A model generated the notes under the pieces. The model saw only the letters and a list, made by a program, of their open reading frames with translations. It did no database searches and had not been told where the DNA came from. Below, one piece after another: positions 42,748-64,000 of a DNA stretch of 64,000 nucleotides; position 1 is the stretch's first letter, and each line of letters starts with the position of its first letter. This DNA comes from Schmidtea nova. Taxonomy: Eukaryota. Location: positions 572,880,001 through 572,944,000 of the forward strand of contig CM097882.1 of assembly GCA_044892505.1 (NCBI GenBank). The letters are read 5' to 3'. The translations under genes were made by a program, and so were the position numbers.

Positions 42748-42824
42748 ATAATTTTGGTATTTGAGTGTAAAGTCATTTACATTCATATAGAAAACATAAT
42801 AAATATTATTGAATTGACATTTAA

Positions 42825-44916: not shown

Positions 44917-45924
44917 AACTCGAGTATCCTTTTTAATAAAGGTTGAAATTTGATTCTTGAGTAATAAAGAAATAGGACGAGAAACACTAAAAATGAGATC
45001 TCATTTGCTATGCGACAAAAATCAAATGGATGAAGGAAAGATGAGAGTGACGATATTTAGATTAAAATTTGTTTAAATATTGCAGTTTTTGAATATAATA
45101 TATTTTTGGAAATAACGTCTTATATTATGATTAATAATGGAAATGTTTCTATGAGAAATTCCAAATTTAATAAAGATTACATAAACTAAGAGAAACCATA
45201 TGAATACATAACTTTAATTTTGCAAAATATTTACTTTTTCACAAATAAAATAATTCTTGCTGGAATAGATGAACTGGCGGAGATAATTCCAAGCCTTGAT
45301 TCGATAGGGATGATATTTATCCATGATAAAATCCAGATCTACAACAAACATAGTTAAATCATTTTATTGTGGTAAAATCATATCAAGCGTGTTGTTGATA
45401 TTATAAAAACTACAATAGAACAAATAAAATTTGACCGTACGTTAGGGAAAAAGAGAAGATATGCGTATGGTAAATAATTTACTAAAAAAATATCGTACGC
45501 GTATTGTACGTTCCTATTCCGCACTTATGATGAGCTTTGAATATTTGTTTATTCTGGTGAGTTGTTGATCATCAATATGACCTTGACGTCGTTATGGCTC
45601 ATCATCAACAACTCAACATACAAAGCATTAGTTTAAACATCTTGTTGCCGTCACAATGTAACGTTGGTAATGTAACAAATGGGTGGATTTCCGCAAACTG
45701 TGAGCGTCGAAAAATCAAGACTATGATTGACCGAAAATCGAAATGGGTTCAAGGGCCACCGATAGAAGGTTTAATGCCCATTTAATTCCCTCATTCATCA
45801 ATTAATCTATACAAATTGAATACCGGAAATTTTAACAAATATTCACATCAATAATAATTTATTATTACATCAAAGTAAACTATTTTCCAACATCAAAATA
45901 TTAACAAAACCTAATTCATGAAAG

Positions 45925-46778
45925 TGTTGGGGTTGTTATAATCACAGAAAATAAAATTAAAATTGCACAAATCAATAAAAATATAAAAATTGGAAAAATA
46001 ATAATTAATGTTCAAACATTAATTAAAAACTTTACAAAAAATTAAAATAAAGTTTGAGCGAGGGAAACTGGTATGGGAAGATGCCAAATGAGGAGACGAA
46101 TTCAAATATGGGTATATAAAATTGAAATAGGACCCCCAGAAAGAGAAATTAAGAAAATACAAATTAATTAAAAAATAATTAATCGTCTAATGGAAAACCC
46201 GAGCCAATGGGAAACCCGAGCCTATGGGAAACCCGAGCGATGGGGGAAACCCGGGGCATCAACAAAATCATTTAATTATCGAAATAAATTTAATGCCCCG
46301 AGAAGAGACGAAAAACCATTAGCGGCGAAACTCAATTAGGCGGCGGTCAAACAAATTTAATTATCTCATTTTCTCCAGATCCAATTAAGCCGACAGGATG
46401 ACAACAAAAAAATAGTATATAAACGGAGAGCAAATTGCCGATATCGCCATTTGGTCAAAGACAAAGTTTCGAGGCCAACCGATTGAAGAATAAAAGTAGG
46501 CAACGTGAATCAAATCGTTAGAAGACATTTGAAGGAGACGTCGAAAGAAAACCAAAAGTAGAGTTTATACTTAATCTATTGCGTGTCAGAGAGGGAGATA
46601 TCCCATTGGGTGTTCTACCCTCACGCGAAGAGTGCAGAACCGGCGTAACTTTTTGTGATAAAAAGAGTTGTGATCAATTGACAAATAAAGAAAGTTATTG
46701 TGTTGGGTCTTGTTTATTTTGTAATTGAAAGAGAACACCGGAGTCAGAAACTACCGACTTAACACCAATAACCCAACA
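45925..46778 (+). repeat. 5' LTR
   Basis: Direct repeat of 62040-62893. Differences seen at 46061/62176, 46378/62493 and 46705/62820. Confidence 0.97.
46416..46423 (+). promoter_or_regulatory. Candidate LTR TATA box (TATATAAA)
   Basis: Mid-LTR position downstream of the repeat array. A similar aaaatagtata(t)aaa occurs in solo LTR 16633-17548. Confidence 0.55.
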
Positions 46779-46782
46779 TATT

Positions 46783-46800
46783 TGGTGAGCCCGACGTGAT
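46783..46800 (+). promoter_or_regulatory. Primer-binding site, tRNA-Trp type
   Basis: TGGTGAGCCCGACGTGAT lies 4 nt after the LTR. Its complement ATCACGTCGGGCTCACCA matches the 3' end of metazoan tRNA-Trp as I recall it (ATCACGTCGGGGTCACCA) at 17/18. Confidence 0.85.
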
Positions 46801-47163
46801 CAGAGTCGGTGAAACGTTGTTAAAAAAAAAATATAATAATAAAGAATCAAAAGAAAATTATTGATAAATCCGACGTGATAAAAGTCGGTGAAGCGTTGCA
46901 AAAAGAAATCGAATATTTATTGGCAAAAAGAAATTAAAAGTTGCTAAAAAGTTTGGAAATTGTGAAATTGATTAAAAGAAAAAAGTCAGTAAATCGAATC
47001 AAGGTTTGATAAAAGTTTGTTGATAATTGTGGAAAGATTTATACTGTTGAAATTAAAATAAAAGGTAAAATTTATAATTGATATATTAAAATTTAGAAGA
47101 GAAAAAGTTGTACCAAACCGACCATATTACGAATTGAGAAGTAATAAACAACCAGAAACAAAA

Positions 47164-50100
47164 ATGAGTAATACAAACAATCAGGATGATACGCCCATGT
47201 CCACCAGCAACGGCAATGGCAATGACTATGCTAGCTGCCAGAAACTGCCAGTAAATCAGTATGGAGGCGATCCAGTGGAATTCGTTGATTTTATGGCGGA
47301 TTACTACATGTACGCTACAGCCTATGGATGGAGCCAAGCGACAATGGTGCAAAGATTGCCACTATATCTGAAGGGAGCAGCGAGAGAAGCCTGGCAACAA
47401 ATTGACAAAAGAACAATTGCGAATGACTGGACGAAATTGAAAGATGCCTTAGCCGCGAAACTAATTGGAGGGGATATAAAACGGATAATGCGGCAGAAGT
47501 TCTATAATCGAGTGCAAAAATCAGAGGAATCGGTAAGTGAATTTGCGTACCACTTGACTACTCTTGCAGAGAAAGCATTCGAAGTAAAGCCGGAACAGAT
47601 TGAAGTGGCAAAGCAGGTGAAAGAATTGTTACAAGACCAGTTCTTAACGGGAGTCAAAAAGGAGATCAAAAAGGCATTATGTTATGTGGACTTCAATAAC
47701 TTTGATGAGTTAATCAAAAAGGCGATGAAAATTGAGTTAAATCTGAAAAGTTCACAGCAAAAATCAGAATCGTTTGCCATCATCAATGAACCCAGAGAAC
47801 GGTCCATAACTCCAGTCAGAAACAATCGGCTTCAGCAATCAATTAGTCCATCACCAACGTTTAGACAAAGATTTGAGCCAAATAAATCAACAAATGTTCA
47901 AATTGATGAAAAAGAGAGGCCAATTCAATGCAGCCATTGCCAACGAATAGGACATCATGTTAATCAATGTTGGTTCAAAAATAGATCTCCAAAAAGTCCA
48001 ACTCCAATTCAGTGTGATTATTGTCAAAGGATGGGACATAACAGCAATCAATGCTGGTCTAAAAACAACGTTCAACGAAGCCCAAAACGAATGTGGCCAG
48101 ATTGGTTGAAGGGTAATGGTGAGAAAAGTTTTAATAAACTAAATTTTAATGATCAGCGTAATAACGATAATGTGCAATGTTACAATTGTGGAAGGAAAGG
48201 ACATGTCTCTCGGAATTGTTTTGCTAGATCGAGGTCTCCATCAACTTCGCCATCCCCACAAAGAGATAGAGTGAACCTTCAAGGGCAAATTCAATGTCAT
48301 TCATGTAGAGGGTATGGACACATGGCTAGATCATGCCCGAGGAATGTCGACAAATTTCAGAAACCTATATTAAAAAAATCAATAAGATTTCAAAATGATA
48401 AACTGCAGACAGACAACGTGGCTTTTGTTCAATCAGATGATTTCAATGAAAAGATTGAAAACCAAGTGAAAGAAATGGGTCGACGTTTAGATCGTTTAAT
48501 GTCCAAGTTTGAATCTGATGATGAATTGGATAATCACATGATGTATGGATCGCAGCAAGACATGACAGAAGCTGACACGACAACTGGGTGTACAAAAGAC
48601 GATTTGGAAAGCGAAAAGGCTACCATGATGATGAAAAGACTTGAGAAATTACTAGAAGCTAGCGTGGAAGAATCATCTAAAATATTGGTATCGGTTAAAA
48701 GCCTGAGTCAAATGTCGTTAAGTATGAGAAAATTGAAAGGCGCGATTAATTTGTGTGCTAATTATTATCAAATAAATGTAACAAATAGAGAAGAAATTAA
48801 AGAATTGATGAGAAAATTTGGGAAAGCGTTTCGAGAAAATAAATGGTTAGATTTTATTTCTATTGATGTTGTTAATGAAAATGATAAAAATGTGATTACT
48901 TGTCGTTGTGAAGCCTATGATCGCGTAAAAGATTTAAAAAGGAGACTAAGAGAGAAATGTGAAGGCTGGGTAGTCGAATTAAAGTTTAAAAATAGAGATT
49001 TAGAAAATGATGAATATTTAATAGATTGTGGTCTTATACCAGGGAACAAAAATGAATTACAAATAGCCAGTATGATGAGTAACAGTGAAATGACAAGAAG
49101 TGATCCGATGCAAATAGTAAAGGAGCTAAATGATGTTTTATGTATTGGTGACGAAAACGAAATTAAAGAAATAGTAAAATTAATAGAGGAATCTGAATTT
49201 GGGCAAAAGGAAAAATTAGAACTTGCTAATGCGATACGACCCTATTTGTTTAGAAGAACGGGATATAGACAATGTTTAAAGAGAATAATGAGAAAATTGG
49301 GTAAAGAGCTTAGAAAAGATAGAGTTGAGTTAAATTCGTTAACAATTGCAATAGAATATGAAGATATTGGGAAAACTGAGTATGTAGAGGAACACTGGTG
49401 TACGAAAGTTCGAAAAGTGCGTAAAAGAGCTGCGGAAATGTTAGGTAAAGATGGAATTATAGTGCTGAGATATAAAGGGGAAGAATTGGATGACGATGAA
49501 TATTTATATGACTGCGGATGTGTGCCACAGGAACTGGATGAATATGGGTATTTAAGTACTAATGGAAGTCAGGGGTATTTGATAAATCGCATAATCGCAA
49601 ATAAAGAATATAATTCGAGGATGCTTGACAAAGTTGAATTTTCAGACACAGATGAGCAAACAGAAGAAATAAAGGAAAGCGAAATTGAAATAGTTACTGA
49701 TGATTATAATGGGGAAAAGAGGGTTAATAATAATGCTCAGACAGCAGAAATGGCAGTTATTGAAGATACAAATATCGAAAAAGGTGAAATAAAAAGTGCG
49801 AATACGAAGACTAGAACATTGTATGAGATGAAGAAAACCTTAGTAAAATTAGAGCAGGAAGTTGAAGAAACAAGTGACGTAATAAGAAATTTGGTTGGAG
49901 TCGTATACCCAATTCTAAAAATAGAAACAGAAACGGAAGAGGAATTGAAAGGAATAGTAGATGAAGTGAAAATCAGACTTCCAGGAGTAGTGCGGAAATT
50001 GGGCAAAGAGGATAGCTTTTGTAACTGTGAAGTAATAGAAAAGTTGATCGAAAATGGGATCGATAAAGAAGTAGTGCTAATAATTCTAACCTACGTTGTT

Positions 50101-53100
50101 TCAGAGATCGGTATTCATGCATTTACAAAGTCAGACAAGCTTGATAATTTAATTGACATTGCGGCTCGACTAATAAATGAGTCTTTAATTAATTGGCTGA
50201 GAGAGCGTGGAGGGTGGAAAACATTAAATTTATCGATAATAAAGAAAAGAAAGAAACCGGAAAATGATTCACCGCAAAGGCAATTAAACGGAAGAGTAAG
50301 TCCAAAACTAAGGAAGACGATGATATTCCCTTGGATAATGTTCATGATGATTATTCTATGTGCAGTTATTGCACAAACGACGTCATTGGTGGCATACGAT
50401 TGTTCACAAACCGAAATGGGGAAAATTTACTCAGTGGTTGATATGTCAGAGTGCCCAGACGCATACCCTCGAAAATTAAAGATTGAAAACGAAGTAAAAT
50501 ACCATGTGTATCAAGAGTCAGATTTACGGCGTACTAAAGTTAGAGAATGCATTGTAAAACGAACCACTTTTGTATTCTTCTGTGGTAAATGGAGCCATAC
50601 GTCATTAATCAAAATGCACGCCATTCCACGACCGGTGGATGTATTGCCGGAAAATTGCTTAACAGCCTTCCAAACGGGGGAATTAAAAATCAGCCCTGAA
50701 ATTCGATTAAAAGCGAAATTAAATCATCAAATTCGAGAAACATTAGTGGTGAAGGGAGTGATGAAATCAGACGGTGACTGTGAAGGTGAACCGTATAAAA
50801 TAAATGAGAAAATAATTAAACACACAGTGGTAATAGAGGAATACTTAACCGAATTGAGAATGTTCGAAGGATCTTTTGATGATGATACCGGAAAACTACA
50901 AACTCACCCATTTTGTAATATGAAGCAAACTAGTTGTCACACGGGAGAGTCAATCCTCGTTTACGATGTTAAAACCAATATATGTAACCTGGCTCATTTA
51001 AAAACAATGAATTTCAAAGAGTTAACCGGAGAGCAATTTAGGGAGAGACCAGACAACTTTAATATGAATTATAAACAAAATGGCACAGTAAGGTCAACTC
51101 CACTGTGGACAAGACAAACAGCGATGGTTTTAATGTCAACCTTGCCAACGGACAGCATGCGCTTTATTAAAAAGGAGATTACGAGCAAATGTGGTCAAAC
51201 AGTCTATGTAACAAATTACAAAGGAGTATATGTGGCAAAAACGACTGTACATGAAGCGAAGACGAGAATTCACAGAGATGATATAAAACTAACTCATTAT
51301 TTTAATAATAAAATTGATTATTTATTTCATTTTAGCCAAAATACCATGGAGAACATATATAGAGAAATGATCTTGAACGATTGTAAATTGAATAAAGAAA
51401 TACTTCGAAATCGAATGGCGATGGCGGTTACAAACCCGAATTTAGTAGCACCCATGCTAATTTCAGAAAATGGTATATTTGCTAGAATCTTTGGAGAAGC
51501 GCTATACAGTTACCGATGCAAAGAAATTACAGTGAAAATCGCAAAATATGAGAAATGTACAAATGAATTGCCAGTAAGTGTTGGCGGGAAACTACGATTT
51601 ATGGAACCGATAACCCGAATACTGCTGGAGGAACAAGTTAAACCAAAAACCTTGCAATGTAATCGATTATTAGCTCCATTATATCGCTTAGCACAAGATT
51701 CATGGATAGCGCTACCAGATTACCGAGGAGTAAGAACACCAGATAAATTGGAATTGACGAATTTGGAATACTTAATAAATTTTACATCAATGAATAAAAT
51801 GGCACAAATGGGTTTATATGCGAGCGAAGACATCGAAGAAGCCCAAAGAAATTTGTTATTTCCGTCAAAAAAGGAACGCGTGATTTCAGAAATGATTGAT
51901 ACCATATTGCCGAATGGAGAAGGGAAAGTTAACTACGAATACTTGCTGACACCTGATCATTTTAAACGAGCTACTTACAAAACAATGGAAAAGATTTGGG
52001 GAAAATTTATGTTTTTGGGACAAGCCTGTGCAGGTTTAATTGGTATTTATGTAATTGCAGTAACGGTAAAGGTGATAATATCACAAGTATTGTCCACTCA
52101 CAGGATATATACAATTTCCGGATGGTCATGGAAAATGATAATTGGTTGTATTCCATTTTTGGCTAGATTCTTCATTACAAGTCATCAATACAAAGAAATG
52201 GCAAATGTACGAGCGCAATTGAGAAATGATCAGAAAAGCGAAGAATCAATATGCGATCATGAGGATAAAAATAATGGTCCTGATAATGAGAACGGTGGCG
52301 GCAGATCAGAGCAAAATAATTTTCGAAGGAGCATAATGAAAAGTAGAATAGAACCCGAAACCAGGCTCTTGCTTGAACCAATGCCAAAATTAACAGGAAT
52401 TGACACTCTTTCTAAATGGTACACACCAACATTAATACCAACAGCTCCAATATACCCAAGTGAAAAGTTGAGAGAAATGAAGCCAGTTGATGAGATTAAA
52501 ATCGAACTAGAAAAGATTGAGCCATCAAGCGCCGAAATTGAAAGAAAGAACATGCTTGGGTTACCATGTAGTTACGCATTGATGACAATAGAAATTGGAG
52601 GAAAACAACCTAGAATATCCATACAGTTTAATGAAAGAAAAGTGGAAGCATTATTGGATTCAGGCTCGAGTCACAGTATAGTATCGGAGAGTTTCTTAAC
52701 GAGACAGGAAAAAGCGAAAATAAAGCCAACAACAAAAATTATTAAATCAATGACGCATAACGTATTAAATATTATTGGAAAACTAGAAGTAAAGTTGAAT
52801 ATAGGAAATCAGGAAGTAATTCATTGGGTATCAGTAATGAGAAAAAGCCCTGTCAAATGTTTGATTGGCATGGATATCATGGAACAATTACAAGGAATCT
52901 CACTGGACTTAAAGACGGGCAAATTAATAAAAAGGCAGACTGATGAGGTAGTGCATGAAGCAGGAGAGGTCTTTTTAAATCAAACGTTGGAAGTACCACC
53001 AAAAAGCGAAGTGATATACTACGCTAATGTAGAAAATGTTTCCGAAGAAGAGTGTATATTCGAACCAAATCAAAAACTAATAGAAAAGTACGACGTACCT

Positions 53101-56100
53101 ATGTGTGACGAAATAGTAAAAATTAAAGACAAAACCGTGCCAGTAAGAATAGCTAATTGTAGCACAAAATCTGTTCAGATGAAACCCAAAACAAAGTTGG
53201 GAAAACTGTCAAAAATGAAAGGGGAAGAAGTGCAAAAACTACCTAGAAATATCAAAATCTATAAAGAACCACAAGTGACAAGTGATGATCTAACAGAGGC
53301 ACAAAGACAAGAATTTGCGGCATTATTGAAAAGGTATAAAAATGCATTCGCGAAACATGAGTATGATCTAGGACTCACTCAGATAATTGAACACGAAATA
53401 CCATTGCTTGATGAAACTCCTATAAAAATACGACCGTACAGAATTCCATATATACATCAAGAAGAAAGCGATCGGCAAATTAAAGCCATGAAGGAATTCA
53501 AAATAATAAGAGATAGTTCATCACCATTCTCATCCTCAATAGTAGTAGTGAAAAAGAAGGACGGTGAATTACGATTTTGTGTTGATTATCGGAAATTAAA
53601 CCAAGTGACAAGAAAAGACACATATCCTATACCAGTTCCGCAAGAAATGTTTGATCAGATGGGAGAAGTACAATTCTTCACAGTAATCGATCTTAACAAA
53701 GGATATAACCAATTTAAAGTCAAAGAGGAAGACAGGAGAAAAACGGCATTTTCAGATGGGAAAGGACTATATGAGTTTAATGTGCTGCCATTCGGTCTAA
53801 CGGGAGCACCAGCTACATTCCAGAGAGGTATGAATTTTGTTTTGCGTGATATACCACATGCATTAGTCTATATTGATGATATAATAATATTTTCAAACAA
53901 TTTTCAGGGACACTTAAAAGATGTGGAAATAGTGTTTAAACGACTAATAGAAGCCAATTTAAAAATAAAACCTTCAAAATGTGAATGGGGAAAATCAGAA
54001 GTTGTTTACGTAGGGCACATAATTTCACGGAGAGGGTTACAACCAAACCCAGAAAATGTAGAAAAGATCAAAAAGTATCCGATCCCCAAAGATGCGGATC
54101 AAGTCCGACAATTTCTTGGATTAGCGAGCTATTATAGGAAATTCATAAGGAATTTTTCTCATGTAGCACAACCTTTAAACATGTTGCTAAAAAAGCAGAC
54201 TAAATTCAAATGGGTAACAGCTCAACAAGAAGCATTTGATAAATTAAAAGAGAGTCTTATTAAACAACCAATATTGAGATGTCCGAACTTCAAAAAACCA
54301 TTTATACTGATGACAGATGCAAGCAATTTTGCATTAGGAGCAGTACTTGGACAGCAAGTAGAAGGTGAGAAAGATCACGTAATTGCTTATGCAAGCCGTT
54401 CATTAAAACCGCATGAAAAAAATTATTCCACAATCGAAAAAGAAACGCTAGCATTAGTATATGGGATAACTAATTTTCGACAATATTTGGTTGGGAGAAA
54501 GTTTATTGTATTTACGGATCATAACCCATTACAATGGTTAATGAAGCATCGAGATTCGGCAAGCAAGCTGATTAGGTGGTCAATTGCATTACAGGAGTAC
54601 GATTTTGAAATTAAGTACCGTACGGGGAAGTCAAATGGAAATGCGGACGCAATGTCGAGAATCCCTGAAGAAAATATTATTCAAAATGAAGTAAATTATG
54701 AAAATACGATATTTATGGCAATTAAAACGGCAAATAATATGAAGGAATTACAGGGTGATCAGGAAAACGATGTTGAAGTGAATCAATTGCGGAAACATGC
54801 TGTCACAATAAAAAGAGAAAGTGACTGGAAGCACATTGCGAAAGAAAAACATAAATACGTCATCCATGACGGGTTGTTGAAATGTGTGAAAAATGAAAAC
54901 TTATTAATAGTAGTACCGGCAAAACATCGAACAGCATTACTGTTGTTGTATCATGATGGGGCATTGGGAGGGCATTTATCTGCTCGAAAAACATTATCAA
55001 GATTAAAACAGAAATATTACTGGGATACGATAGAGCAAGACGTCAGACAATGGTGTCACACTTGTGAAGTTTGTCTGACCAGGCGAAACACAGGAAGAAA
55101 AATAAAAGTTCCTTTAAAACCTATGACCGTGCCGGTAGCACCAATGGAAATGACAGCAATGGATATTGTTGGTCCACTACCAGAAACAACCAATGGCAAT
55201 AAATATATCATCGTATTTTGTGATTACCTAACAAAATGGCCGGAAGCATATGCAATGCAGAATCAAAAGGCAGAAACTGTTGCGAAAATATTTGTAGAAA
55301 ACATCATATTTCGGTACGGAGCACCAAGAAAATTGCTCACAGACCAAGGAACAAACTTTCAAAGCGAATTATTTAAATCTATAACCGAATTATTCGGAAT
55401 CCTAAAACTTAATACATCCCCATATCACCCACAAACAGATGGGTTAGTCGAAAGATTTAATGGAACATTAATTAACATGATTTCGTCGTATGTAAACAGG
55501 AAACAAAAAGATTGGGATTTGTTCATTAAGCCATGTTTGTTTGCATATCGAAATGCAGTGAATGAAAGCACCGGTGAAACACCATTTTATCTTATGTACC
55601 TACGACGAAACAATATGCCGATTGACTTAAAGTTTCAACCACCAATCTCACAATACATGGACGTATCCGATTACAAAGTAGTAATGCAGGAAAGACTGCA
55701 ATCAGTATGGGTCAAAGCGGGATTGAAAATAAGGCATAATCAAGAAGCATATAAAGAATGCTATGATAAACGTGCGCATGCACATGATATTAAAGTTGGA
55801 GATTTGGTGTACATAAATAAACCAGAGCCAACGAAAGGGCTGTCTACCAAACTACAGCGACCATTTAAAGGACCTTATTTGGTGTGTGATACAACCGAGA
55901 CGAATTTAAAATTGCGTCCACAAAATAATAAAAAGGCGGGAACGATTGTCATTCATGTAAACCGATGTAAGAAAGTTCCGCTGGAAGAAAGATATCCCTT
56001 GAGGTCAAAACCAAGTAACGGCGAAAAAGAAAAAGTAATTAAACAAAAATTTACAAAAAACCCTACTCAATTAAACTACCTAAGTAAAACGTTGTTGATA

Positions 56101-57267
56101 ACAACAGTGATGATGATCAATGTTTTGTGTGCGTCGGCAATACGAACATTCCCAGCATATGCAATGAAGAAAGTCCCATTATTAGAAAAGATCGATGTGT
56201 ATTCAACATGTACCCAAATAGTATGGATCTATTATTGCGAAGTGACGGAAGAAATAGAGATAAATAATCTGCTAAACTATTTCGAGCCCCCAGTAAAATT
56301 AAACTATAACAAAAATACACATGTCGCTCGTGAATTAGCAATGAATTATAAATACCCTTGGATAATAACACGAGTGAATCTTAAAGATAATTTGACAAGA
56401 GTCCATGATCTAATACGTGTCAGTGTATGGACAAAAAGACTACAAGACCGCGTATCCATTGAACCAGTAATCAATGGAATTAATGTATATTGGAACTCTC
56501 ATGAATCCCAGCAAGTAAAAACTGTCTTTCAAAATTATGCTATCGATACACTGAACAGCAGAAAACCATTTATAAAATATGTTAATTTAAAATTATTTCA
56601 GATGTATAATATTCAGATACAATATTTTGAAAAGTTGTTGTATGAAAATGGAACAGACAGCACCGATCAGTGGGTTCTAATCCATTCCAGTCAACACACG
56701 ATAAACTTGATCAATGAAACAAACAGAGTTATCTTTCATGTGTATAATCAGACGATAAATGTCACCCGTCAAACGTACCCCAATCAAAGAGCTGTTTTAT
56801 ACTATTGTGGAAAAGTACAAGGAATATTAGAGAACAGAAATGAATCAAAGATCTTATCTTTCCGACAACTACGGTCAAAATCAAACTCTAAAATAGTGCT
56901 AATAAAAATCAAGTATTATCGGCGAGCCAAATACTCCAATCTTTGGCAATTAACCTTGGTAGAGGATAAATTTGTTCGAGTGTCATATACTGAGATGGAC
57001 AGTTACCCACGGAAGTTAAATCAATCAACGCGAATCACAACCGCTCACATCAAGGTGTTAAATCCAAGCAATAAAACTATATCAGCTTCACCTACGGAAA
57101 ATGAATTTCTATGTGTAACATTATTAATAACAATTATCATTATAACAATATTTGTCATTATTCTCATATCTGTCATCATCTTTGAAATTCGAAAAACTGA
57201 AAGACATTCTACGAATCAATCCGAGGCCCCGAGACCTTGGATCGATTACGAGGAGACGTTTGTATAG
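47164..57267 (+). CDS. Single polyprotein Gag-Ubl-Ubl-Bcl2-like-Env-PR-RT-RH-IN-second glycoprotein, 3367 aa from the first ATG
   Basis: Uninterrupted 10.1-kb ORF. The track start at 47134 is a TTG; the first ATG is at 47164. Domains are listed separately. Confidence 0.95.
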   Translation: MSNTNNQDDTPMSTSNGNGNDYASCQKLPVNQYGGDPVEFVDFMADYYMYATAYGWSQATMVQRLPLYLKGAAREAWQQIDKRTIANDWTKLKDALAAKLIGGDIKRIMRQKFYNRVQKSEESVSEFAYHLTTLAEKAFEVKPEQIEVAKQVKELLQDQFLTGVKKEIKKALCYVDFNNFDELIKKAMKIELNLKSSQQKSESFAIINEPRERSITPVRNNRLQQSISPSPTFRQRFEPNKSTNVQIDEKERPIQCSHCQRIGHHVNQCWFKNRSPKSPTPIQCDYCQRMGHNSNQCWSKNNVQRSPKRMWPDWLKGNGEKSFNKLNFNDQRNNDNVQCYNCGRKGHVSRNCFARSRSPSTSPSPQRDRVNLQGQIQCHSCRGYGHMARSCPRNVDKFQKPILKKSIRFQNDKLQTDNVAFVQSDDFNEKIENQVKEMGRRLDRLMSKFESDDELDNHMMYGSQQDMTEADTTTGCTKDDLESEKATMMMKRLEKLLEASVEESSKILVSVKSLSQMSLSMRKLKGAINLCANYYQINVTNREEIKELMRKFGKAFRENKWLDFISIDVVNENDKNVITCRCEAYDRVKDLKRRLREKCEGWVVELKFKNRDLENDEYLIDCGLIPGNKNELQIASMMSNSEMTRSDPMQIVKELNDVLCIGDENEIKEIVKLIEESEFGQKEKLELANAIRPYLFRRTGYRQCLKRIMRKLGKELRKDRVELNSLTIAIEYEDIGKTEYVEEHWCTKVRKVRKRAAEMLGKDGIIVLRYKGEELDDDEYLYDCGCVPQELDEYGYLSTNGSQGYLINRIIANKEYNSRMLDKVEFSDTDEQTEEIKESEIEIVTDDYNGEKRVNNNAQTAEMAVIEDTNIEKGEIKSANTKTRTLYEMKKTLVKLEQEVEETSDVIRNLVGVVYPILKIETETEEELKGIVDEVKIRLPGVVRKLGKEDSFCNCEVIEKLIENGIDKEVVLIILTYVVSEIGIHAFTKSDKLDNLIDIAARLINESLINWLRERGGWKTLNLSIIKKRKKPENDSPQRQLNGRVSPKLRKTMIFPWIMFMMIILCAVIAQTTSLVAYDCSQTEMGKIYSVVDMSECPDAYPRKLKIENEVKYHVYQESDLRRTKVRECIVKRTTFVFFCGKWSHTSLIKMHAIPRPVDVLPENCLTAFQTGELKISPEIRLKAKLNHQIRETLVVKGVMKSDGDCEGEPYKINEKIIKHTVVIEEYLTELRMFEGSFDDDTGKLQTHPFCNMKQTSCHTGESILVYDVKTNICNLAHLKTMNFKELTGEQFRERPDNFNMNYKQNGTVRSTPLWTRQTAMVLMSTLPTDSMRFIKKEITSKCGQTVYVTNYKGVYVAKTTVHEAKTRIHRDDIKLTHYFNNKIDYLFHFSQNTMENIYREMILNDCKLNKEILRNRMAMAVTNPNLVAPMLISENGIFARIFGEALYSYRCKEITVKIAKYEKCTNELPVSVGGKLRFMEPITRILLEEQVKPKTLQCNRLLAPLYRLAQDSWIALPDYRGVRTPDKLELTNLEYLINFTSMNKMAQMGLYASEDIEEAQRNLLFPSKKERVISEMIDTILPNGEGKVNYEYLLTPDHFKRATYKTMEKIWGKFMFLGQACAGLIGIYVIAVTVKVIISQVLSTHRIYTISGWSWKMIIGCIPFLARFFITSHQYKEMANVRAQLRNDQKSEESICDHEDKNNGPDNENGGGRSEQNNFRRSIMKSRIEPETRLLLEPMPKLTGIDTLSKWYTPTLIPTAPIYPSEKLREMKPVDEIKIELEKIEPSSAEIERKNMLGLPCSYALMTIEIGGKQPRISIQFNERKVEALLDSGSSHSIVSESFLTRQEKAKIKPTTKIIKSMTHNVLNIIGKLEVKLNIGNQEVIHWVSVMRKSPVKCLIGMDIMEQLQGISLDLKTGKLIKRQTDEVVHEAGEVFLNQTLEVPPKSEVIYYANVENVSEEECIFEPNQKLIEKYDVPMCDEIVKIKDKTVPVRIANCSTKSVQMKPKTKLGKLSKMKGEEVQKLPRNIKIYKEPQVTSDDLTEAQRQEFAALLKRYKNAFAKHEYDLGLTQIIEHEIPLLDETPIKIRPYRIPYIHQEESDRQIKAMKEFKIIRDSSSPFSSSIVVVKKKDGELRFCVDYRKLNQVTRKDTYPIPVPQEMFDQMGEVQFFTVIDLNKGYNQFKVKEEDRRKTAFSDGKGLYEFNVLPFGLTGAPATFQRGMNFVLRDIPHALVYIDDIIIFSNNFQGHLKDVEIVFKRLIEANLKIKPSKCEWGKSEVVYVGHIISRRGLQPNPENVEKIKKYPIPKDADQVRQFLGLASYYRKFIRNFSHVAQPLNMLLKKQTKFKWVTAQQEAFDKLKESLIKQPILRCPNFKKPFILMTDASNFALGAVLGQQVEGEKDHVIAYASRSLKPHEKNYSTIEKETLALVYGITNFRQYLVGRKFIVFTDHNPLQWLMKHRDSASKLIRWSIALQEYDFEIKYRTGKSNGNADAMSRIPEENIIQNEVNYENTIFMAIKTANNMKELQGDQENDVEVNQLRKHAVTIKRESDWKHIAKEKHKYVIHDGLLKCVKNENLLIVVPAKHRTALLLLYHDGALGGHLSARKTLSRLKQKYYWDTIEQDVRQWCHTCEVCLTRRNTGRKIKVPLKPMTVPVAPMEMTAMDIVGPLPETTNGNKYIIVFCDYLTKWPEAYAMQNQKAETVAKIFVENIIFRYGAPRKLLTDQGTNFQSELFKSITELFGILKLNTSPYHPQTDGLVERFNGTLINMISSYVNRKQKDWDLFIKPCLFAYRNAVNESTGETPFYLMYLRRNNMPIDLKFQPPISQYMDVSDYKVVMQERLQSVWVKAGLKIRHNQEAYKECYDKRAHAHDIKVGDLVYINKPEPTKGLSTKLQRPFKGPYLVCDTTETNLKLRPQNNKKAGTIVIHVNRCKKVPLEERYPLRSKPSNGEKEKVIKQKFTKNPTQLNYLSKTLLITTVMMINVLCASAIRTFPAYAMKKVPLLEKIDVYSTCTQIVWIYYCEVTEEIEINNLLNYFEPPVKLNYNKNTHVARELAMNYKYPWIITRVNLKDNLTRVHDLIRVSVWTKRLQDRVSIEPVINGINVYWNSHESQQVKTVFQNYAIDTLNSRKPFIKYVNLKLFQMYNIQIQYFEKLLYENGTDSTDQWVLIHSSQHTINLINETNRVIFHVYNQTINVTRQTYPNQRAVLYYCGKVQGILENRNESKILSFRQLRSKSNSKIVLIKIKYYRRAKYSNLWQLTLVEDKFVRVSYTEMDSYPRKLNQSTRITTAHIKVLNPSNKTISASPTENEFLCVTLLITIIIITIFVIILISVIIFEIRKTERHSTNQSEAPRPWIDYEETFV
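47242..48336 (+). other. Gag: capsid-like region plus four CX2CX4HX4C zinc knuckles (47929-48336)
   Basis: YGGDPVEFVDF...LPLYLKGAAREAW, RVQKSEESVSEF, DQFLTG. Knuckles CSHCQRIGHHVNQC, CDYCQRMGHNSNQC, CYNCGRKGHVSRNC, CHSCRGYGHMARSC. Confidence 0.92.
48853..49065 (+). other. Ubiquitin-like domain 1 in the polyprotein
   Basis: ISIDVVNENDKNVITCRCEAYDRVKDLKRRLREKCEGWVVELKFKNRDLENDEYLIDCGL follows the ubiquitin pattern (..ITLEV.PSDTI..VK.KI...LIF.GK.LED..TL.DY.I). Confidence 0.75.
49339..49596 (+). other. Ubiquitin-like domain 2 in the polyprotein
   Basis: TKVRKVRKRAAEMLGKDGIIVLRYKGEELDDDEYLYDCGC is paralogous to domain 1 (L.[FY]K...L..DEYL.DCG). Confidence 0.7.
49900..50230 (+). other. Bcl-2-like domain
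   Basis: BH2-like LINWLRERGGW (50185-50217) is preceded by a hydrophobic helix (GIDKEVVLIILTY, BH1/alpha5 position) and a BH3-position helix (VVRKLGKE), and followed by a hydrophobic anchor. Confidence 0.65.
50386..52180 (+). other. Chuvirus-type (class III-like) envelope fusion glycoprotein with preceding signal segment (50320-50385) and TM (52006-52090)
   Basis: LVAYDC start, DGDCEG, CGQTVYVT, FNNKIDY, DCKLNKEILRN..AMA..NP, GEALYSYRC, CTNELPV..FMEPITRIL, GLYASEDI....LLFP, WGKFMFLG...AGLIGI, GWSW. This motif order is the one I recognise from chuvirus glycoproteins. Confidence 0.85.
52580..52920 (+). other. Aspartic protease
   Basis: VEALLDSGSSHSIV (DSG at 52657-52665) and LIGMD. Confidence 0.92.
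53400..54200 (+). other. Reverse transcriptase (Ty3/Gypsy type)
   Basis: SPFSSSIVVVKKKDGELRFCVDYRKLN, LPFGL..APATFQR, YIDD (53869-53880), YVGH, FLGLASYYRKFI. Confidence 0.97.
54300..54670 (+). other. RNase H
   Basis: LMTDASNFALGAVL, YSTIEKETLA, VFTDHNPL, NADAMSR. Confidence 0.96.
54940..55980 (+). other. Integrase (HHCC, DDE, GPY/F)
   Basis: YHD..GGH, CHTCEVC, MDIVGPLP, TDQG, YHPQTDGLVERFN, FKGPYLV. Confidence 0.96.
56092..57267 (+). other. Second predicted type I membrane glycoprotein fused after integrase
   Basis: Signal-like LLITTVMMINVLCASA, then ~320 aa with 8 N-X-S/T sequons, then a 28-aa hydrophobic TM (57106-57189) and a 25-aa tail. Family not recognised. Confidence 0.7.
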
Positions 57268-57663
57268 TGAGATACAATTATTTGCATGCAATTATGGTAG
57301 ATTAATAGTTTAGTATCTAGTGACATTTTCTTTTATAATTGTTTCATGTGGATCTGCACTCTTCGGCATGGGAAAGTGGGAAAGTGATTTGATTGGCTAA
57401 TACTAAAAGAGTGAGGGGGTAGAAAAAGGGATAGAAAAATCAAAAGGGGGGTATATAAGGTAAACTTAGACATCATAAAATTTAAATTAATCTTAAACAA
57501 AAGTAAAATTTCAAATAACTAAGAAAACTTCAATTAAATCGGTAATTTTATATTTTTATTTATACCGCTACCAACTAAGACAGTATCCTTTGGGTACTCC
57601 ATCTTAGTCCTAGCGTCAAAATTAAATTAATTCAAATTTAAATTATAATCGTTTTAGTAAGAA

Positions 57664-59112
57664 ATGGAGCAGATACAATGGGCCAGAGAAACGTACGACA
57701 GCTATCTGAAGATGATGAGAAATCATGCCGGCCAAAGAAGATTCCAGATAGTCAACAATTTGCAAATTCCAAATTATCTAAGGTTGGACGACAGAAAAAT
57801 GAAAGTCCAAGTATTCACTATAGACAGAAAATCAAAATTTCAAATGACAAAGGAACTAAAAATATCAGATAAAGACGAATACTATATCCACGTCATCAGA
57901 GGGACGGTGGAAATTCTAGACGAAAATGATCAAATATGGTGGGAGATCAAAAAACTTTCGTCATGGAAAATCAAGGAGCCAGCAATCGGGAAAATATTAC
58001 GAGCAGCAAACGAGGATGCCACAATTGTAGTGGAAACAAGGATCAAAAACGAAATTGATGATGTACCCAGCGAGGAGCCAATGCAGAAAGAAAATCTTGA
58101 ACTCCTACAAATAACAAAGGAAATGTTAAAAAGAAAATTGTCCTTTATTCGGAGGGAAATGGGTATAGAAGAAATTCGGAACAAAATATTGTTCATTGAT
58201 GCCGAATATGGAACCAGCATGACTGGAAAGATGATTCCCTTGGCGGTGGCCATTATGAACTATTACGGGAAAGTTGTGAAAAATGTCTTCTTAACACCTA
58301 GAGGAAGACTCAAACATTTCAATTCAAACATCCATGGAATAACGGAGGTGGCGAGCCGAAATCAAAAAGACCAGTACGAAGAGATGAAGGAAATCCAAAA
58401 ACTGACAATCGGGAAAATACTCGTAGGACATGACCTACATGCAGAATTACAATTCCTAGGGATATGGGTAAATCATCTTTATGGCATACGGGATCTAGCT
58501 ACTGCTCAAGCGTTGCAATTGAAAGGAGTGACAAGAAGAGGGGAATGGTATAAGCTCAAAACCATAATGAAGGAACTCTATGGAGAAGAGATGCAAATGG
58601 GTATTCACTCAGCTTTAGAGGACGTCAAAAGCATTCGGAAGATATATTTGGGACTAGAAAACCTTTGGATCGATGATATATCAATGCCTAAGATAGGGCC
58701 ATCAAAAAAGTATTCATTGCAAGAATATAAAACTAGGCAACATATGGAATCGATATCTGAAATTCCCAGATTAGAAAGAACGATAATGATCGTAGACGAG
58801 ACAAACATGGAAGTGGATGAAATAGATACAGGAACAGAAAAGAGTAATCAAAAGTTGAAATGGGCAACTGAAATGTATTTAGAGGAGATTGAAGAGAATT
58901 GCGAATGGATGGAATCCACAAAATTAACAAGAATCCAATTATCGATGGAATATGGCCCAATGGAACAAAAGGAGGATCGCAAAAGGAAAGCTTCAGCATC
59001 CAACGTCGACGTCGGGGAAACAATGACCATCAACGGGGTGGTGTATGAAAAAGAAGAAACAATTATCAGATATCGAAATGGGGCAAAGCGGCTGGAAATG
59101 AAAATGAACTAA
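57664..59112 (+). CDS. ORF2, 482 aa, with a central REX4/ISG20-like DEDDh 3'-5' exonuclease domain (~58186-58650)
   Basis: FIDAEYG (Exo I), IHGIT, KILVGHDLHAEL (Exo II), IRD, YKLKT, MQMGIHSALED (Exo III). Confidence 0.85.
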   Translation: MEQIQWARETYDSYLKMMRNHAGQRRFQIVNNLQIPNYLRLDDRKMKVQVFTIDRKSKFQMTKELKISDKDEYYIHVIRGTVEILDENDQIWWEIKKLSSWKIKEPAIGKILRAANEDATIVVETRIKNEIDDVPSEEPMQKENLELLQITKEMLKRKLSFIRREMGIEEIRNKILFIDAEYGTSMTGKMIPLAVAIMNYYGKVVKNVFLTPRGRLKHFNSNIHGITEVASRNQKDQYEEMKEIQKLTIGKILVGHDLHAELQFLGIWVNHLYGIRDLATAQALQLKGVTRRGEWYKLKTIMKELYGEEMQMGIHSALEDVKSIRKIYLGLENLWIDDISMPKIGPSKKYSLQEYKTRQHMESISEIPRLERTIMIVDETNMEVDEIDTGTEKSNQKLKWATEMYLEEIEENCEWMESTKLTRIQLSMEYGPMEQKEDRKRKASASNVDVGETMTINGVVYEKEETIIRYRNGAKRLEMKMN

Positions 59113-62021
59113 AATTATATTAATTATATATGTGATTATTTATAAATAAATTTAGTAATTCTGTCTCAGTTCGTTAAAATGGCGCCCACCGGTCAAACCC
59201 CCACAACAAAAAAAAATTTTTTTTTTAATAAATAAATAAAACACAAAAAAGAATTGAATAAATAAAAATTCTGAAGCTAAATAAAAACCAACAACCTTTA
59301 ATCACCGGGGGTGTACTCTCCTGGACANNNNNNNNNNNNNNNNNNNNNNNNNNNNNNNNNNNNNNNNNNNNNNNNNNNNNNNNNNNNNNNNNNNNNNNNN
59401 NNNNNNNNNNNNNNNNNNNNNNNNNNNNNNNNNNNNNNNNNNNNNNNNNNNNNNNNNNNNNNNNNNNNNNNNNNNNNNNNNNNNNNNNNNNNNNNNNNNN
59501 NNNNNNNNNNNNNNNNNNNNNNNNNNNNNNNNNNNNNTCATTATACGGTCACTATAAGTGCGATATCAAAAGATAATTTCGATCCTTATAAGTAGTATAT
59601 ACAATGATTAAAATTCAGGACGAAATAAAAACAAAAAACTCTAAATCAATCTCCCTGAGTAGTGATTGAAAGTTGTCAATTATTATATTATAGTTATTAA
59701 TCAGATTATTGGTATTATATCGTCAAAGGGATGATGGAATCAATAAAACAAACATTGGCAAAAAAAAAATAAATAAATAAATAAAACAGAATAAAATAAT
59801 AATAAAATGAAATTATCATAAATATCATAAAAGCATAAGGCGAAGACAGTTATTATTAAATTCATCAACATTGTGATCACATTATTAGAATATCACTCTA
59901 TTATCATTAGTAGTATAAGGGGCATTATCATTATTATTATTATTATTGTTGTTGTTGTCATTGTTGCTATATGATGACAATTTTAAATCTAAATAAAAAC
60001 CAACAGCCCTTAATCGCCGGGATCATACTCTCCTGGACAGCGATTGAGGGTTGCCAGTTATTATTGTTATTATTATTATTATTATTATTATTGTTATTAT
60101 TATCATTATTATTATTATTATTAATTGATAGTATTGTTAATTTTTCAATAATTAATTTTTCCAATAATAGTTTATTAAAGATTTATCGAGGCCCTCTACA
60201 CATATACTAGTCAGCTTGTTAAGGGAAATCTGTCTAAGGTCAGATCCTGCTTAGTCGACACACACCAACACAGGATTTTTGCCTTTCGATGAGAATTTTC
60301 CCCATACACCGACATATTATCTATCTTTAAAGTATCATTGATATTAAAAACTAGGAAAATAAAAGGATTTTCAAAAAATTATTAATTAATTTACAAAAAA
60401 AATCAATTATTCTGTCAAAATTATTTTGACTTTTCATTCAATTTTTGACAATCTGAAATTAAAATATATCGATATAAAATAGTCGCAAATATCAATTTTT
60501 AATCAATATTTCTATTTTAGTACTAGTCAATTGTGACAGCTGTAGTCGCGTCTTTTCTGAGAGCTTTTCATCACTTTTCAATATTAAAAATTTAAAAAAA
60601 AAAATAAATAAATAATAAACAAAATATATATAAATATGTATAAGTATAAAAAGAGTATACGTATATATATATATATGTATATGTATATGTATGAGTATAG
60701 GTGTATATATATGAATATATAGATAAAAGTCAATTAAATAAAATGAAATAAAATTTACTTATTGTTATTATAAATGATATTTTCAAAATTTCAAAATGAA
60801 TAATAATTGAAATTCATAAACTTTCCCCTGGTTTTCTAAATAAGAAATTAATTCGTTTCTGGAAATACTATTAATTAACACATATCATCGCCAAATTGTC
60901 TATAATGAATCGGCTTTTCAAGATGACTAAATATAAAATGAAGCCTCGAGTAAGTTTGCGAGCAATGATCGATTGATATTCCGTCTGATCACTAGTCTGC
61001 GGGGGGATACATGGAACCAGATGGTGGACAGGTTCTGGATTGATGATGTGCACGGGTAATACGATGATCCCATATGGTAGCATTAGTTGAAATTGCCATT
61101 TCATGGTCTTTATGATCAATTATTGCTGCCTTTGTGTCTACAATGTCGGAAATATCGATAATGACGCAGCCGCTACTCCAGTAATTATTTTCCTCGACGA
61201 TTATAAAATAATGAGAGAAAAAATTCTTTCGCGTCGCTTATATTTGCGGCGCCCTCTCTCATCTTTGGGAATTAACTGAATTTGATCTCGCAATTATTCT
61301 CTGTAGAATGACAGTCCCAAAATCTAATTATCTTCCAAGCTGAGAGTAATTGAATTTCAGTGACGGTTCGAATTTTTACCCGTTACTATATCAACCAAAA
61401 AAAAATGAAATTTAATAACAGTTCTTGAATAATTTTGTTGACATTTTCCTATGCGCATTTTTCGTGTTCTTCATCTACGAAAATTAATTGCATTTCGCTC
61501 CAGAATTTTCCCTGGAGAATTTATATTGAATCATTAATAGAAAGCACGAGTTTGCAGATGCCCAATCTTAGAATTTGATTTTATGAAAAGAATTCGGANN
61601 NNNNNNNNNNNNNNNNNNNNNNNNNNNNNNNNNNNNNNNNNNNNNNNNNNNNNNNNNNNNNNNNNNNNNNNNNNNNNNNNNNNNNNNNNNNNNNNNNNNN
61701 NNNNNNNNNNNNNNNNNNNNNNNNNNNNNNNNNNNNNNNNNNNNNNNNNNNNNNNNNNNNNNNNNTGGTTATTATTATTAATATTAGTACTATCATTAGT
61801 ACTGNNNNNNNNNNNNNNNNNNNNNNNNNNNNNNNNNNNNNNNNNNNNNNNNNNNNNNNNNNNNNNNNNNNNNNNNNNNNNNNNNNNNNNNNNNNNNNNN
61901 NNNNNNNNNNNNNNNNNNNNNNNNNNNNNNNNNNNNNNNNNNNNNNNNNNNNNNNNNNNNNNNNNATTGTTAGGAGGTATGATCAAAAATATGTGTATAT
62001 GTAGATTCGAGGACGAATCTT

Positions 62022-62037
62022 GAAAATAAAGGGGAGA
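62022..62037 (+). promoter_or_regulatory. Polypurine tract
   Basis: gaaaataaaggggaga lies 2 nt before the 3' LTR. Confidence 0.85.
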
Positions 62038-62039
62038 TA

Positions 62040-62893
62040 TGTTGGGGTTGTTATAATCACAGAAAATAAAATTAAAATTGCACAAATCAATAAAAATATA
62101 AAAATTGGAAAAATAATAATTAATGTTCAAACATTAATTAAAAACTTTACAAAAAATTAAAATAAAGTTTGAGCGGGGGAAACTGGTATGGGAAGATGCC
62201 AAATGAGGAGACGAATTCAAATATGGGTATATAAAATTGAAATAGGACCCCCAGAAAGAGAAATTAAGAAAATACAAATTAATTAAAAAATAATTAATCG
62301 TCTAATGGAAAACCCGAGCCAATGGGAAACCCGAGCCTATGGGAAACCCGAGCGATGGGGGAAACCCGGGGCATCAACAAAATCATTTAATTATCGAAAT
62401 AAATTTAATGCCCCGAGAAGAGACGAAAAACCATTAGCGGCGAAACTCAATTAGGCGGCGGTCAAACAAATTTAATTATCTCATTTTCTCCAAATCCAAT
62501 TAAGCCGACAGGATGACAACAAAAAAATAGTATATAAACGGAGAGCAAATTGCCGATATCGCCATTTGGTCAAAGACAAAGTTTCGAGGCCAACCGATTG
62601 AAGAATAAAAGTAGGCAACGTGAATCAAATCGTTAGAAGACATTTGAAGGAGACGTCGAAAGAAAACCAAAAGTAGAGTTTATACTTAATCTATTGCGTG
62701 TCAGAGAGGGAGATATCCCATTGGGTGTTCTACCCTCACGCGAAGAGTGCAGAACCGGCGTAACTTTTTGTGATAAAAAGAGTTGTGATCAATTGACAAA
62801 TAAAGAAAGTTATTGTGTTAGGTCTTGTTTATTTTGTAATTGAAAGAGAACACCGGAGTCAGAAACTACCGACTTAACACCAATAACCCAACA
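62040..62893 (+). repeat. 3' LTR
   Basis: Direct repeat of 45925-46778, followed by the TSD AAAG. Confidence 0.97.
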
Positions 62894-64000
62894 AAAGGAT
62901 CCATTTCAAATAAACGTAACATATCAAAAAGTACAACAAAATTATTAAAATCATGTCACCACAGTATCAAAGTGTTCGGATTATTTAAAAATTGGCCGCA
63001 GTTTTACTTCACAAATCCTTTAGTCAAATTGAATGTTAACTTGATCGGTCAGATGCGTCTAAAACGAATATTACCTCAATTGTGAACATTAAAACATTAA
63101 TTCCCAGAGGAAACAAAACTAAATAATCTCAAAAAAGCAAAGATTTTCATTCATTCTTTCACACATAATTCTTTAAAAAAAACTGAACACCGCTTAATCC
63201 AGATTCCTTAGCACAGAAGGCTGCCGTTAATCTACTGTCATACTCCCCTAAATTTCGGCTCACGAACAGCATTTTATTTTTATTATTACTGAAAATCTTT
63301 AATTTGCCTTACTCCACTCGAGAAAAATGCGTTCGGGTACAGACCTCTCATTAATAAATGAAATTTGTGTTTAATTTAAATTAGAAAGATAATAGAAAAT
63401 CTTTAGATTTTAAAATTTTGTCGAAGCGTAAGCAACGGCAGGTTTCGAGACAGCTGATTTTCCAAGACAATAGGCTAAAAAATCATGGGAATTATTAAAA
63501 TCTTTAAACCATATGAGAGTTAAACACCTCAACAAATTCTCGGTTGAATAGAGTCGAAATATTATATAAGTTTAAAATCTATATATCCAATGCTAATTAA
63601 GCGAACATCAAAAATGCAAGATTTTGATTGGGTCATTTATATTATAGAAAATAAGTTTCTATATGTTGTGCCTATTGATTTTATGTATCTAATTTTAGAA
63701 ATGTGATTCTTGGGAATCAGAAATCGGAATACACCCTATAACGATGACTAGCATCCTCTATAATGCTAGTTGGTGTGTGTATTCATGATTACTCATGAAT
63801 TTTCTTTGTTTTAAGTAAGATATTTACTTAAATTTATCATTCAAATGACTTTTTTTAGTAATGTATGAACATGCGAAAGGATTTATATTCGAAAAAAAGT
63901 AAGAAACTATATTAAAATTTATTATTTTATTACATTAATAACATTAATATCCAGAGATATCTATTTTTTTGCATCATTTTGGACTTTTTCAAAAATCGAA

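Follow-up and report, generated by a model that had tools for sequence, protein, structure and literature searches.

Enveloped Ty3/gypsy elements have been described with one envelope gene. Does such an element ever carry a second surface protein, and what might it do with one? The question is raised by a stretch of 64,000 nucleotides from Schmidtea nova (assembly GCA_044892505.1, contig CM097882.1, positions 572,880,001 to 572,944,000 of the forward strand; all of it is called the window below), in which a Gypsy-type element encodes a single polyprotein that runs on behind its integrase. We call the last 391 codons of this open reading frame (ORF, 47062-57267) and their product gp2, glycoprotein 1 gp1, and the family of the window element family A. 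In an animal whose stem cells supply soma as well as germ line, a second surface protein that is conserved and has an adhesion-type fold and a scaffold-binding tail would be a handle on how these very abundant elements choose and reach their target cells. Our answer has two steps of different strength: we are confident that gp2 is a real, selected type I membrane protein of fibronectin type III (FN3) fold, and we give a probability of roughly 0.5 to the reading that it acts as an attachment and positioning protein for cell-to-cell spread.

A second membrane protein behind the integrase

The element is a complete long terminal repeat (LTR) element of 16,969 bp at 45925-62893 on the plus strand (Table 1); its two 854-bp LTRs differ at 3 positions and it is flanked by a target-site duplication, AAAG, at 45921-45924 and 62894-62897, which together indicate a recent insertion. 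The order of domains along the polyprotein, as assigned with Pfam, is Gag, CCHC, ubiquitin-like (Ubl), Bcl-2-like, gp1, protease, reverse transcriptase (RT), RNase H and integrase, the Ubl and Bcl-2 assignments being weak; GPY/F, read from the sequence, and gp2 follow. LTRs with a target-site duplication, the Pol order from protease to integrase and a gB-type envelope protein between Gag and Pol place it among the errantiviruses, and it is a Ty3/gypsy GAG-ENV-POL gB-type errantivirus, Burro-like, of a kind already published.

The first-pass annotation of this DNA had described a continuation of the frame behind GPY/F with a signal-like segment, eight sequons, a transmembrane (TM) segment and a terminus reading DYEETFV, and all of these are present. 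Position 56092, where that annotation let the protein begin, is codon 3011 and falls inside the hydrophobic segment at aa 3009-3027. A signal-peptidase site is predicted after A-S-A (aa 3024-3026, ending at 56139), and small residues stand at -3 and -1 before the predicted cleavage point in every other family; the signal and TM calls rest on hydropathy together with these small residues, judged by eye. Eight sequons would be luminal (NLT 3110, NGT 3196, NET 3218, NQT 3229, NVT 3233, NES 3260, NQS 3320 and NKT 3337) and a ninth, NQS 3385, follows the TM segment on the cytosolic side, compared with two on gp1 (NGT 1340 and NFT 1573). The count of nine, where 10,000 shuffles average 4.6 (p 0.029), is a modest excess by itself; what takes gp2 beyond chance is its conservation in divergent families, the purifying selection upon it and its confidently predicted fold. 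By hydropathy and pattern, the arrangement of a type I membrane glycoprotein, with signal, luminal sequons, a single TM segment and a cytosolic tail, recurs in all families. The claim of a second such protein, unrelated to gp1 and fused behind the integrase, is supported, and the protein is conserved in relatives. The 24-residue tail holds no catalytic domain. Expression of gp2 from an ATG of its own was considered and rejected, no Met being conserved ahead of the signal segment.

Between GPY/F and gp2, the region of the RYPLRSK motif is probably the true end of the integrase. The motif is kept in the form R/Q-Y-x-[LF]-R-[SP] in families A-E, in two proteins from outside the genome (P0003 and P0006) and in a family of 2993 aa; a role as a chromatin tether would be an analogy only.

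Conservation and selection among related families

A search of the animal's own genome returned 111 listed matches, from 109 scored of 3100 candidates, and by hand count 19 of the 111 keep the 3401-codon frame free of stops. Among the 30 best copies, which were picked by similarity and are hence a biased sample, 27 have no interruption between the integrase end and the stop codon, and all 27 of these end in ETFV. Behind the integrase and in frame with it, gp2 is found in family B (3402 aa), family D (3390-3393), family C (3345) and family E, with fragments of others, so that this genome has the fusion in five families or more (A-E). Outside the genome, a representative search gave 3 proteins and profile searches 2 and 1. 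One of them, P0006, is a metagenomic protein that joins an integrase (70% identity to that of the window) to a gp2 (24% identity) within a single chain; another, P0003, starts within the integrase end. Scans of metagenome contigs and one scan of viral contigs found no gp2 locus. The first-pass annotation had named homologues as a check on the fusion, and gp2 does stand fused behind the integrase both in relatives within the genome and in P0006. In six-row trees, moderately supported, integrase and gp2 both branch as (A,B,D), C, P0006, which indicates that gp2 has been inherited with Pol. No GT..AG joint was seen among the 15 of 75 joints listed, from four contig sets of one study covering all 30 bins, a result with no bearing on splicing or expression. 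At one decayed locus (L071:620-1317) a gp2-like piece directly abuts a gp1 piece; the locus probably represents a further family, in a copy that was nested or rearranged.

Selection was measured pairwise by NG86. For the core of the gp2 ectodomain the ratio dN/dS is 0.129 between A and B, 0.096 between A and D and 0.163 between B and D, values to be taken as rough since dS is 1.2-2.4, and the A-C comparison is saturated. The corresponding values are 0.03-0.05 for gp1, 0.01-0.02 for RT, 0.02-0.04 for integrase and near 0.6-1.2 for the gp2 stalk. At the level of sequence, these comparisons point clearly to purifying selection on the gp2 ectodomain.

The polyprotein ends of more distant elements broaden this picture. 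Two families of 2992 and 2993 aa (L099/L100 and L096/L097), with 51-52% identity in RT and 38% in gp1, carry a short form made of a signal, a single beta domain that holds a Cys pair, a basic stalk, a TM segment and the tail STLC (in both of the two families), followed by a diverged ORF2. Families A-D have four hydrophobic segments along the polyprotein, and the 2993-aa family has exactly four peaks. The short-form domain matches Fn3_ELFN (E 0.31), Pur_ac_phosph_N (E 0.084), unrelated families (E 0.014-0.027) and antibody V domains (E 0.2-2.4), all weakly, and its FN3 nature is accordingly not established. One giant gp1-bearing relative (L104:8451-9998, L105:3-1187) has ankyrins behind the integrase and then a C-terminal membrane protein of three mutually similar, Cys-containing repeats of ~85 aa (scores attained by 0, 0 and 8 of 500 shuffles), ending in IMMV. 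A C-terminal membrane protein is present in every gp1-bearing family whose end was read, that is in A-E, in the 2992/2993-aa families and in the one giant, and its make-up varies.

A predicted tandem of FN3-fold domains

A structure model of gp2 built from a 26-row alignment (pLDDT 82, pTM 0.72) shows three all-beta domains; a fold from the single sequence had reached pLDDT 30 and was discarded. The best match of the model in the PDB by Foldseek is a three-domain FN3 segment of fibronectin (E 3.6e-10), and the other top matches are FN3 tandems of neogenin, LAR, Tie2, CD45 and contactins, at 8-15% identity. Superposed with VIA-align, the three domains together cover 244 aa of fibronectin at Z 8.9, although this value and those of the single domains in Table 1 lie only slightly above the level that common arrangements reach. 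They are concordant with three other lines: the Leu-x5-Tyr pattern, leads from Atlas, every one in the FN3 clan and scored 0.81-0.85, under the tool's 0.9 mark, and sub-threshold PDB sequence matches to FN3 domains of neogenin and ELFN2 (E 0.7-1.7). FN3 domains are marked by a Trp in strand B and a Leu-x5-Tyr tyrosine corner. Domain 2, which carries the NGT sequon, has L169 and Y175 of this pattern invariant in the alignment and the Trp in most rows; domain 1 has L-x5-Y, and in domain 3 the corner is degenerate in the window family and intact in P0001 and P0002. Domains 2 and 3 resemble each other in an internal repeat test (P 1.5e-4; 0.017 for domains 1 and 2, 0.28 for domains 1 and 3), which is suggestive only. 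Thus, the family that the first-pass annotation could not recognise would be, if the model is right, a tandem of three FN3-fold domains.

As for its source, no Pfam family was found for gp2, a library of viral structures gave only phage and other FN3 proteins, equally weak, with no specific viral donor among them, and no host donor gene appeared among the scored candidates of the genome, where element copies crowded the searches. Capture from a host surface protein may nevertheless be the origin of gp2.

The PDZ-type tail and the sequons

A class I PDZ motif is S/T-x-hydrophobic at a free C-terminus, with -2 and 0 fixed and -1 free. The tails read ETFV in A, ETIV or ETIL in B, ETFV in D, ETRV in E, ETYV in G, KTSV or ETSI in F, STLV in P0001 and P0006 and VTQV in P0002, so that 8 of the 9 lineages with a complete tail end in T-x-[VIL]-COOH, family C being the exception, and the -1 residue varies freely (F, I, R, Y, S, L or Q). 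Such an end arises by chance in ~1.3% of sequences, the lineages being related and thus not independent. The fit to a class I PDZ-binding motif noted in the first-pass annotation is borne out as a conserved sequence feature.

The sequons fare differently. Of seven window sequons mapped, NGT recurs in 7 of the 8 other rows covering it and NET in 6 of 8, and the rest in at most 3; the three-domain relatives counted have 4-9 sequons each and the short-form domain has one. Glycosylation of gp2 is likely, judging by its sequons. In the earlier suggestion of a receptor-binding or shielding partner for the fusogen, however, the shielding part is weak, with two of seven sequons recurring in most families and one in the short form.

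A proposed role for gp2 and its alternatives

Our best reading is that gp2 serves in attachment and positioning, in the following way. By standard topogenesis, Gag, Ubl and the Bcl-2-like domain would stay in the cytosol, signal 1 would lead gp1 into the lumen of the endoplasmic reticulum and the gp1 TM segment would lead the chain out again, leaving Pol cytosolic; signal 2 would then lead gp2 into the lumen, up to the second TM segment and a cytosolic tail. Signal peptidase is predicted to free gp2 after A3026, and a second cut would be needed for the integrase to shed the remnant of signal 2. With no frameshift or stop in the frame and no conserved ATG ahead of gp2, this protein would be synthesised in a one-to-one ratio to Gag, gp1 and Pol. 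The FN3 domains, held out on the stalk, would then likely bind a partner on the surface of host cells, while the T-x-V tail would likely dock on PDZ scaffolds so that the element gathers at cell contacts, where the gB-type gp1 would do the fusing. That gp2 is displayed at the surface, binds a ligand, engages PDZ domains and serves cell-to-cell spread is what we infer. Receptor-binding subunits often diverge faster than fusogens, and between families A and B gp1 is 92% identical and gp2 66% (dN 0.04 against 0.20), gp2 thus diverging about four times faster. The threading itself (cytosol, lumen, cytosol, lumen, cytosol) would add a membrane-threaded polyprotein to the biology of retroelements.

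A bolder form of this reading, which we put forward tentatively and consider as a whole less likely than not, is that entry has been split between two proteins in the manner of herpesviruses: a gB-type fusogen and an attachment protein of captured FN3 adhesion domains would both emerge from a single polyprotein threaded as in flaviviruses, Pol forming a cytosolic loop between the two, and the PDZ tail would steer the element to junctions for spread from cell to cell. On that view the retrotransposon would have a receptor-binding protein of its own, and families would exchange its sequence and the number of its domains as a way of changing which cells are targeted.

Several observations weigh against assigning gp2 an attachment role on FN3 domains and a PDZ tail. 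We know of no published Metaviridae element that needs a second glycoprotein. The cargo of the element diverges between A and B much as gp2 does (Bcl-2-like 60%, Ubl 77% and ORF2 54% identity). The Pfam fn3 family (PF00041) matches none of 11 gp2 members, a miss that divergence can explain; whole-model TM-scores against the Foldseek matches are 0.2-0.3, low because the arrangement of the domains differs; and domain 3 by itself best matches bacterial beta-sandwiches (Z 7.7-8.8). On these three counts FN3 membership rests on the predicted model. Family C keeps an ORF of 3345 codons that ends soon after the TM segment with no PDZ tail. The resemblance of the short-form domain to gp2 domain 2 (hhalign P 0.001; 8.3 bits by HMM, equal to the best of 500 shuffles) is suggestive only, and no homology of the giant relative's C-terminal protein to gp2 was detected (P 0.16-0.73). 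The first-pass annotation had held that the proposal would be refuted if the region were missing from relatives that retain gp1; this is so in part, in the giant relative, and families A-E keep the region. The different end of the giant and the loss of the tail in family C indicate that not all gB-type elements need this particular ectodomain, or the PDZ motif.

The main rival, to which we give appreciable weight while still thinking it improbable, has gp2 as a host-manipulating decoy, an FN3 ectodomain akin to those of cytokine or phosphatase receptors but with no signalling domain, which stands on the surface of the cell that makes it and soaks up a ligand or fills PDZ scaffolds, so that the carrier cell is protected or reprogrammed and gp2 takes no part in entry. 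Its fold is common to cytokine receptors, receptor tyrosine phosphatases and receptor tyrosine kinases, with no catalytic domain on the tail, and its rate of divergence groups it with the Bcl-2-like, Ubl and ISG20-like exonuclease cargo and not with gp1. IAP cargo of Burro1 is also reported to protect stem cells (Lee et al. 2026, as cited in PMC13465017). A C-terminal membrane protein is, however, found in every gp1-bearing family that was read, whereas no ORF2 was seen behind family C, and the fixed position and one-to-one synthesis with gp1 would suit a structural role. Were gp2 a decoy receptor, the element's host-manipulation kit would extend from the cytosol to the cell surface.

Could gp2 instead be an obligate partner of gp1, a chaperone, trigger or glycan shield within a two-protein spike? 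The shared polyprotein and topology, the one-to-one synthesis and the larger number of sequons (8 luminal ones against 2 on gp1, and the 4-9 counted in the three-domain relatives) would be expected of such a partner. Yet gp1 stays 92% identical while gp2 drops to 66% and shrinks elsewhere from three domains to one, the sequons shift between families as described above, and in the available part of PMC13524379 ENV stands by itself in the description of most gB-type errantiviruses, all of which makes an obligate partnership distinctly unlikely. Co-folding of gp1 with the gp2 ectodomain, in two runs with no alignments, scored 0.00 and carries no weight either way.

Less probable again is the idea that the segment mainly tethers Pol or integrase to the membrane during assembly, uncleaved or cleaved late, with the ectodomain secondary. 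The predicted topology would allow it, as signal 2 would go on anchoring the integrase by its C-terminus after the signal-peptidase cut, until a second cut; a hydrophobic segment would suffice for this, however, and purifying selection on 270 luminal residues and the tail motif would be left unexplained. Finally, a captured set of host exons carried as a neutral passenger, for which one might cite the neutrally evolving stalk and the failure to identify a donor gene or a function, is largely refuted by dN/dS of 0.10-0.16 with dS above 1, a frame kept at 24% identity and a conserved tail. The gp2 domain is small, folds well in prediction and lends itself to direct tests for ligand and PDZ partners.

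Other features of the element and the window

Table 1. Features of the element in the window (positions are those of the window)
Feature	Position	Strand	Basis or remark
5' LTR	45925..46778	+	854 bp, TG...CA; 99.65% identical to 62040-62893
Primer-binding-site-like sequence	46783..46800	+	Sequence; TGG start
Single polyprotein ORF	47062..57267	+	Open frame; 3401 codons stop to stop, first ATG 47164
Bcl-2-like domain	49921..50217	+	PF00452 E 0.0064, under Pfam cut-off; 0.00057 on sub-region
Internal signal-like segment 1, before gp1	50317..50373	+	Hydropathy peak aa 1086-1104
gp1, gB-type/class III-like fusogen	50338..52278	+	PF24664 Monjiviricetes_fusion E 2.1e-87
gp1 TM	52024..52080	+	Hydropathy peak aa 1655-1673
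Pol: protease, RT, RNase H, integrase, GPY/F	52603..55977	+	Pfam RVP, RVT_1, RT_RNaseH, Integrase_H2C2, rve; GPY motif by reading
RYPLRSK motif in integrase-gp2 linker	55990..56010	+	Sequence
Internal signal-like segment 2	56086..56142	+	aa 3009-3027; KD19 1.73
gp2 domain 1, predicted FN3 fold	56173..56436	+	Fibronectin EDB: Z 8.7, rmsd 3.1 A, 83 aa (VIA-align, predicted model)
gp2 domain 2, predicted FN3 fold, best conserved	56437..56694	+	CD148, CD45 FN3: Z 8.1-8.2, rmsd 2.4-2.7 A, 74-79 aa (VIA-align)
gp2 domain 3, predicted FN3/Ig-like	56695..56985	+	Included in three-domain fibronectin matches
Ser/Thr/Asn-rich stalk, sequence unconstrained	56986..57105	+	pLDDT <50; dN/dS 0.58-1.2
gp2 TM helix	57124..57180	+	aa 3355-3373; KD19 3.48, ORF maximum; in all complete relatives examined
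Cytosolic tail, 24 residues, ends E-T-F-V-stop	57193..57267	+	Class I PDZ-type motif
ORF2, DEDDh exonuclease, ISG20L2-like	57661..59112	+	ATG 57664; PF00929 27.1 bits (cut-off 24); ISG20L2 E 7.9e-08
3' LTR	62040..62893	+	Purine tract before it

The primer-binding-site-like sequence may be tRNA-Trp-like. Upstream of the first ATG and in frame (47119-47145 in the window), three divergent families have a Y-x-L-R-[SN] motif similar to that which follows GPY/F, which at the sequence level hints at a non-AUG or spliced start; it also resembles the chromatin-binding motif of foamy-virus Gag. Signal 1 follows the Bcl-2-like domain (49921-50373 together) and after cleavage would stay with it as a C-terminal membrane anchor, and host Bcl-2 proteins carry a C-terminal membrane anchor. 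An acceptor-like site, TTTTAG, lies at 57652-57657, 6 nt ahead of the ORF2 ATG, and between ORF2 and the 3' LTR 2.9 kb (59120-62039) are free of long ORFs, with a short repeated motif (59284-59327 and 59995-60039) and masked stretches.

Elsewhere in the window we noted two intron-free ORFs that by eye resemble HAD hydrolases (29533-30264, plus strand, and 40754-41629, minus strand), an aldolase-like fragment (31329-31826) and a hAT-like transposase ORF (23369-26008, minus strand) within an element at 23192-26647, whose ends match an internally deleted copy at 2993-3872 (~3000-3870) at 99%. A large palindrome at 41994-42754 consists of 15-nt repeats around an AT-rich core.

Comparison with known systems

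The closest described relatives are the GAG-ENV-POL errantiviruses of Platyhelminthes with HSV/gB-type envelope proteins, above all Smed_errantivirus_1, which, from the available part of PMC13524379, share the Ty3/gypsy Pol, the gB-type ENV between Gag and Pol and the many near-identical copies; by eye, about four in five residues of gp1 agree with the printed Smed_errantivirus_1 ENV row over 156 aa. Fibronectin or FN3 gives 0 matches in the text and 7 supplements of that source, as far as available, and PDZ gives 0 in the text; a membrane protein behind the integrase is undescribed there. The giant planarian gypsy elements Burro and GYPSM1, in the portion of PMC6431247 at hand, have the same single polyprotein, from Gag through CCHC, Ubl/SUMO, BCL2 and env to protease, RT, RNase H and integrase, at over 30 kb and ~4900-5100 aa, as against 17 kb and 3401 aa in the window. 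Burro1-4 in the strict sense are defined by a length over 30 kb and BIR, ankyrin or MATH cargo; the window element shares Ubl and the Bcl-2-like domain with them and is shorter, and its 3401-codon ORF has no Pfam match to ankyrin, BIR or MATH. The FN3-TM-PDZ module behind its integrase goes unmentioned in that portion of the Burro account (PMC6431247). A literature search found no FN3 or PDZ-tailed protein described in a gypsy element, though Grohme 2018, Jurka 2007 and Lee et al. 2026 may annotate one.

Among host proteins, FN3 surface proteins such as fibronectin, neogenin/DCC, LAR/CD45/CD148, contactins, Tie2 and cytokine receptors are alike in tandem FN3 domains and type I topology. Many of them end in PDZ motifs. 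Unlike them, gp2, at most 21% identical, has no Ig domain and no catalytic or signalling tail, and it is the product of a retroelement polyprotein.

For a pairing of proteins like that of gp1 and gp2, the nearest parallel is perhaps the entry set of herpesviruses, which consists of the fusogen gB and, separately, the Ig-like receptor-binding gD. In both cases a class III-type fusogen would be joined by a distinct beta-sandwich membrane glycoprotein. It is an analogy only: gp2 is predicted to be FN3 and not V-type Ig, there is no gH/gL, and one polyprotein holds both glycoproteins with Pol between them. Class I PDZ motifs, for their part, are found on viral envelope proteins such as HTLV-1 Env and rabies G. 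These too have a short cytosolic tail that ends in S/T-x-hydrophobic, but there the motif belongs to the fusogen, and here to the second protein.

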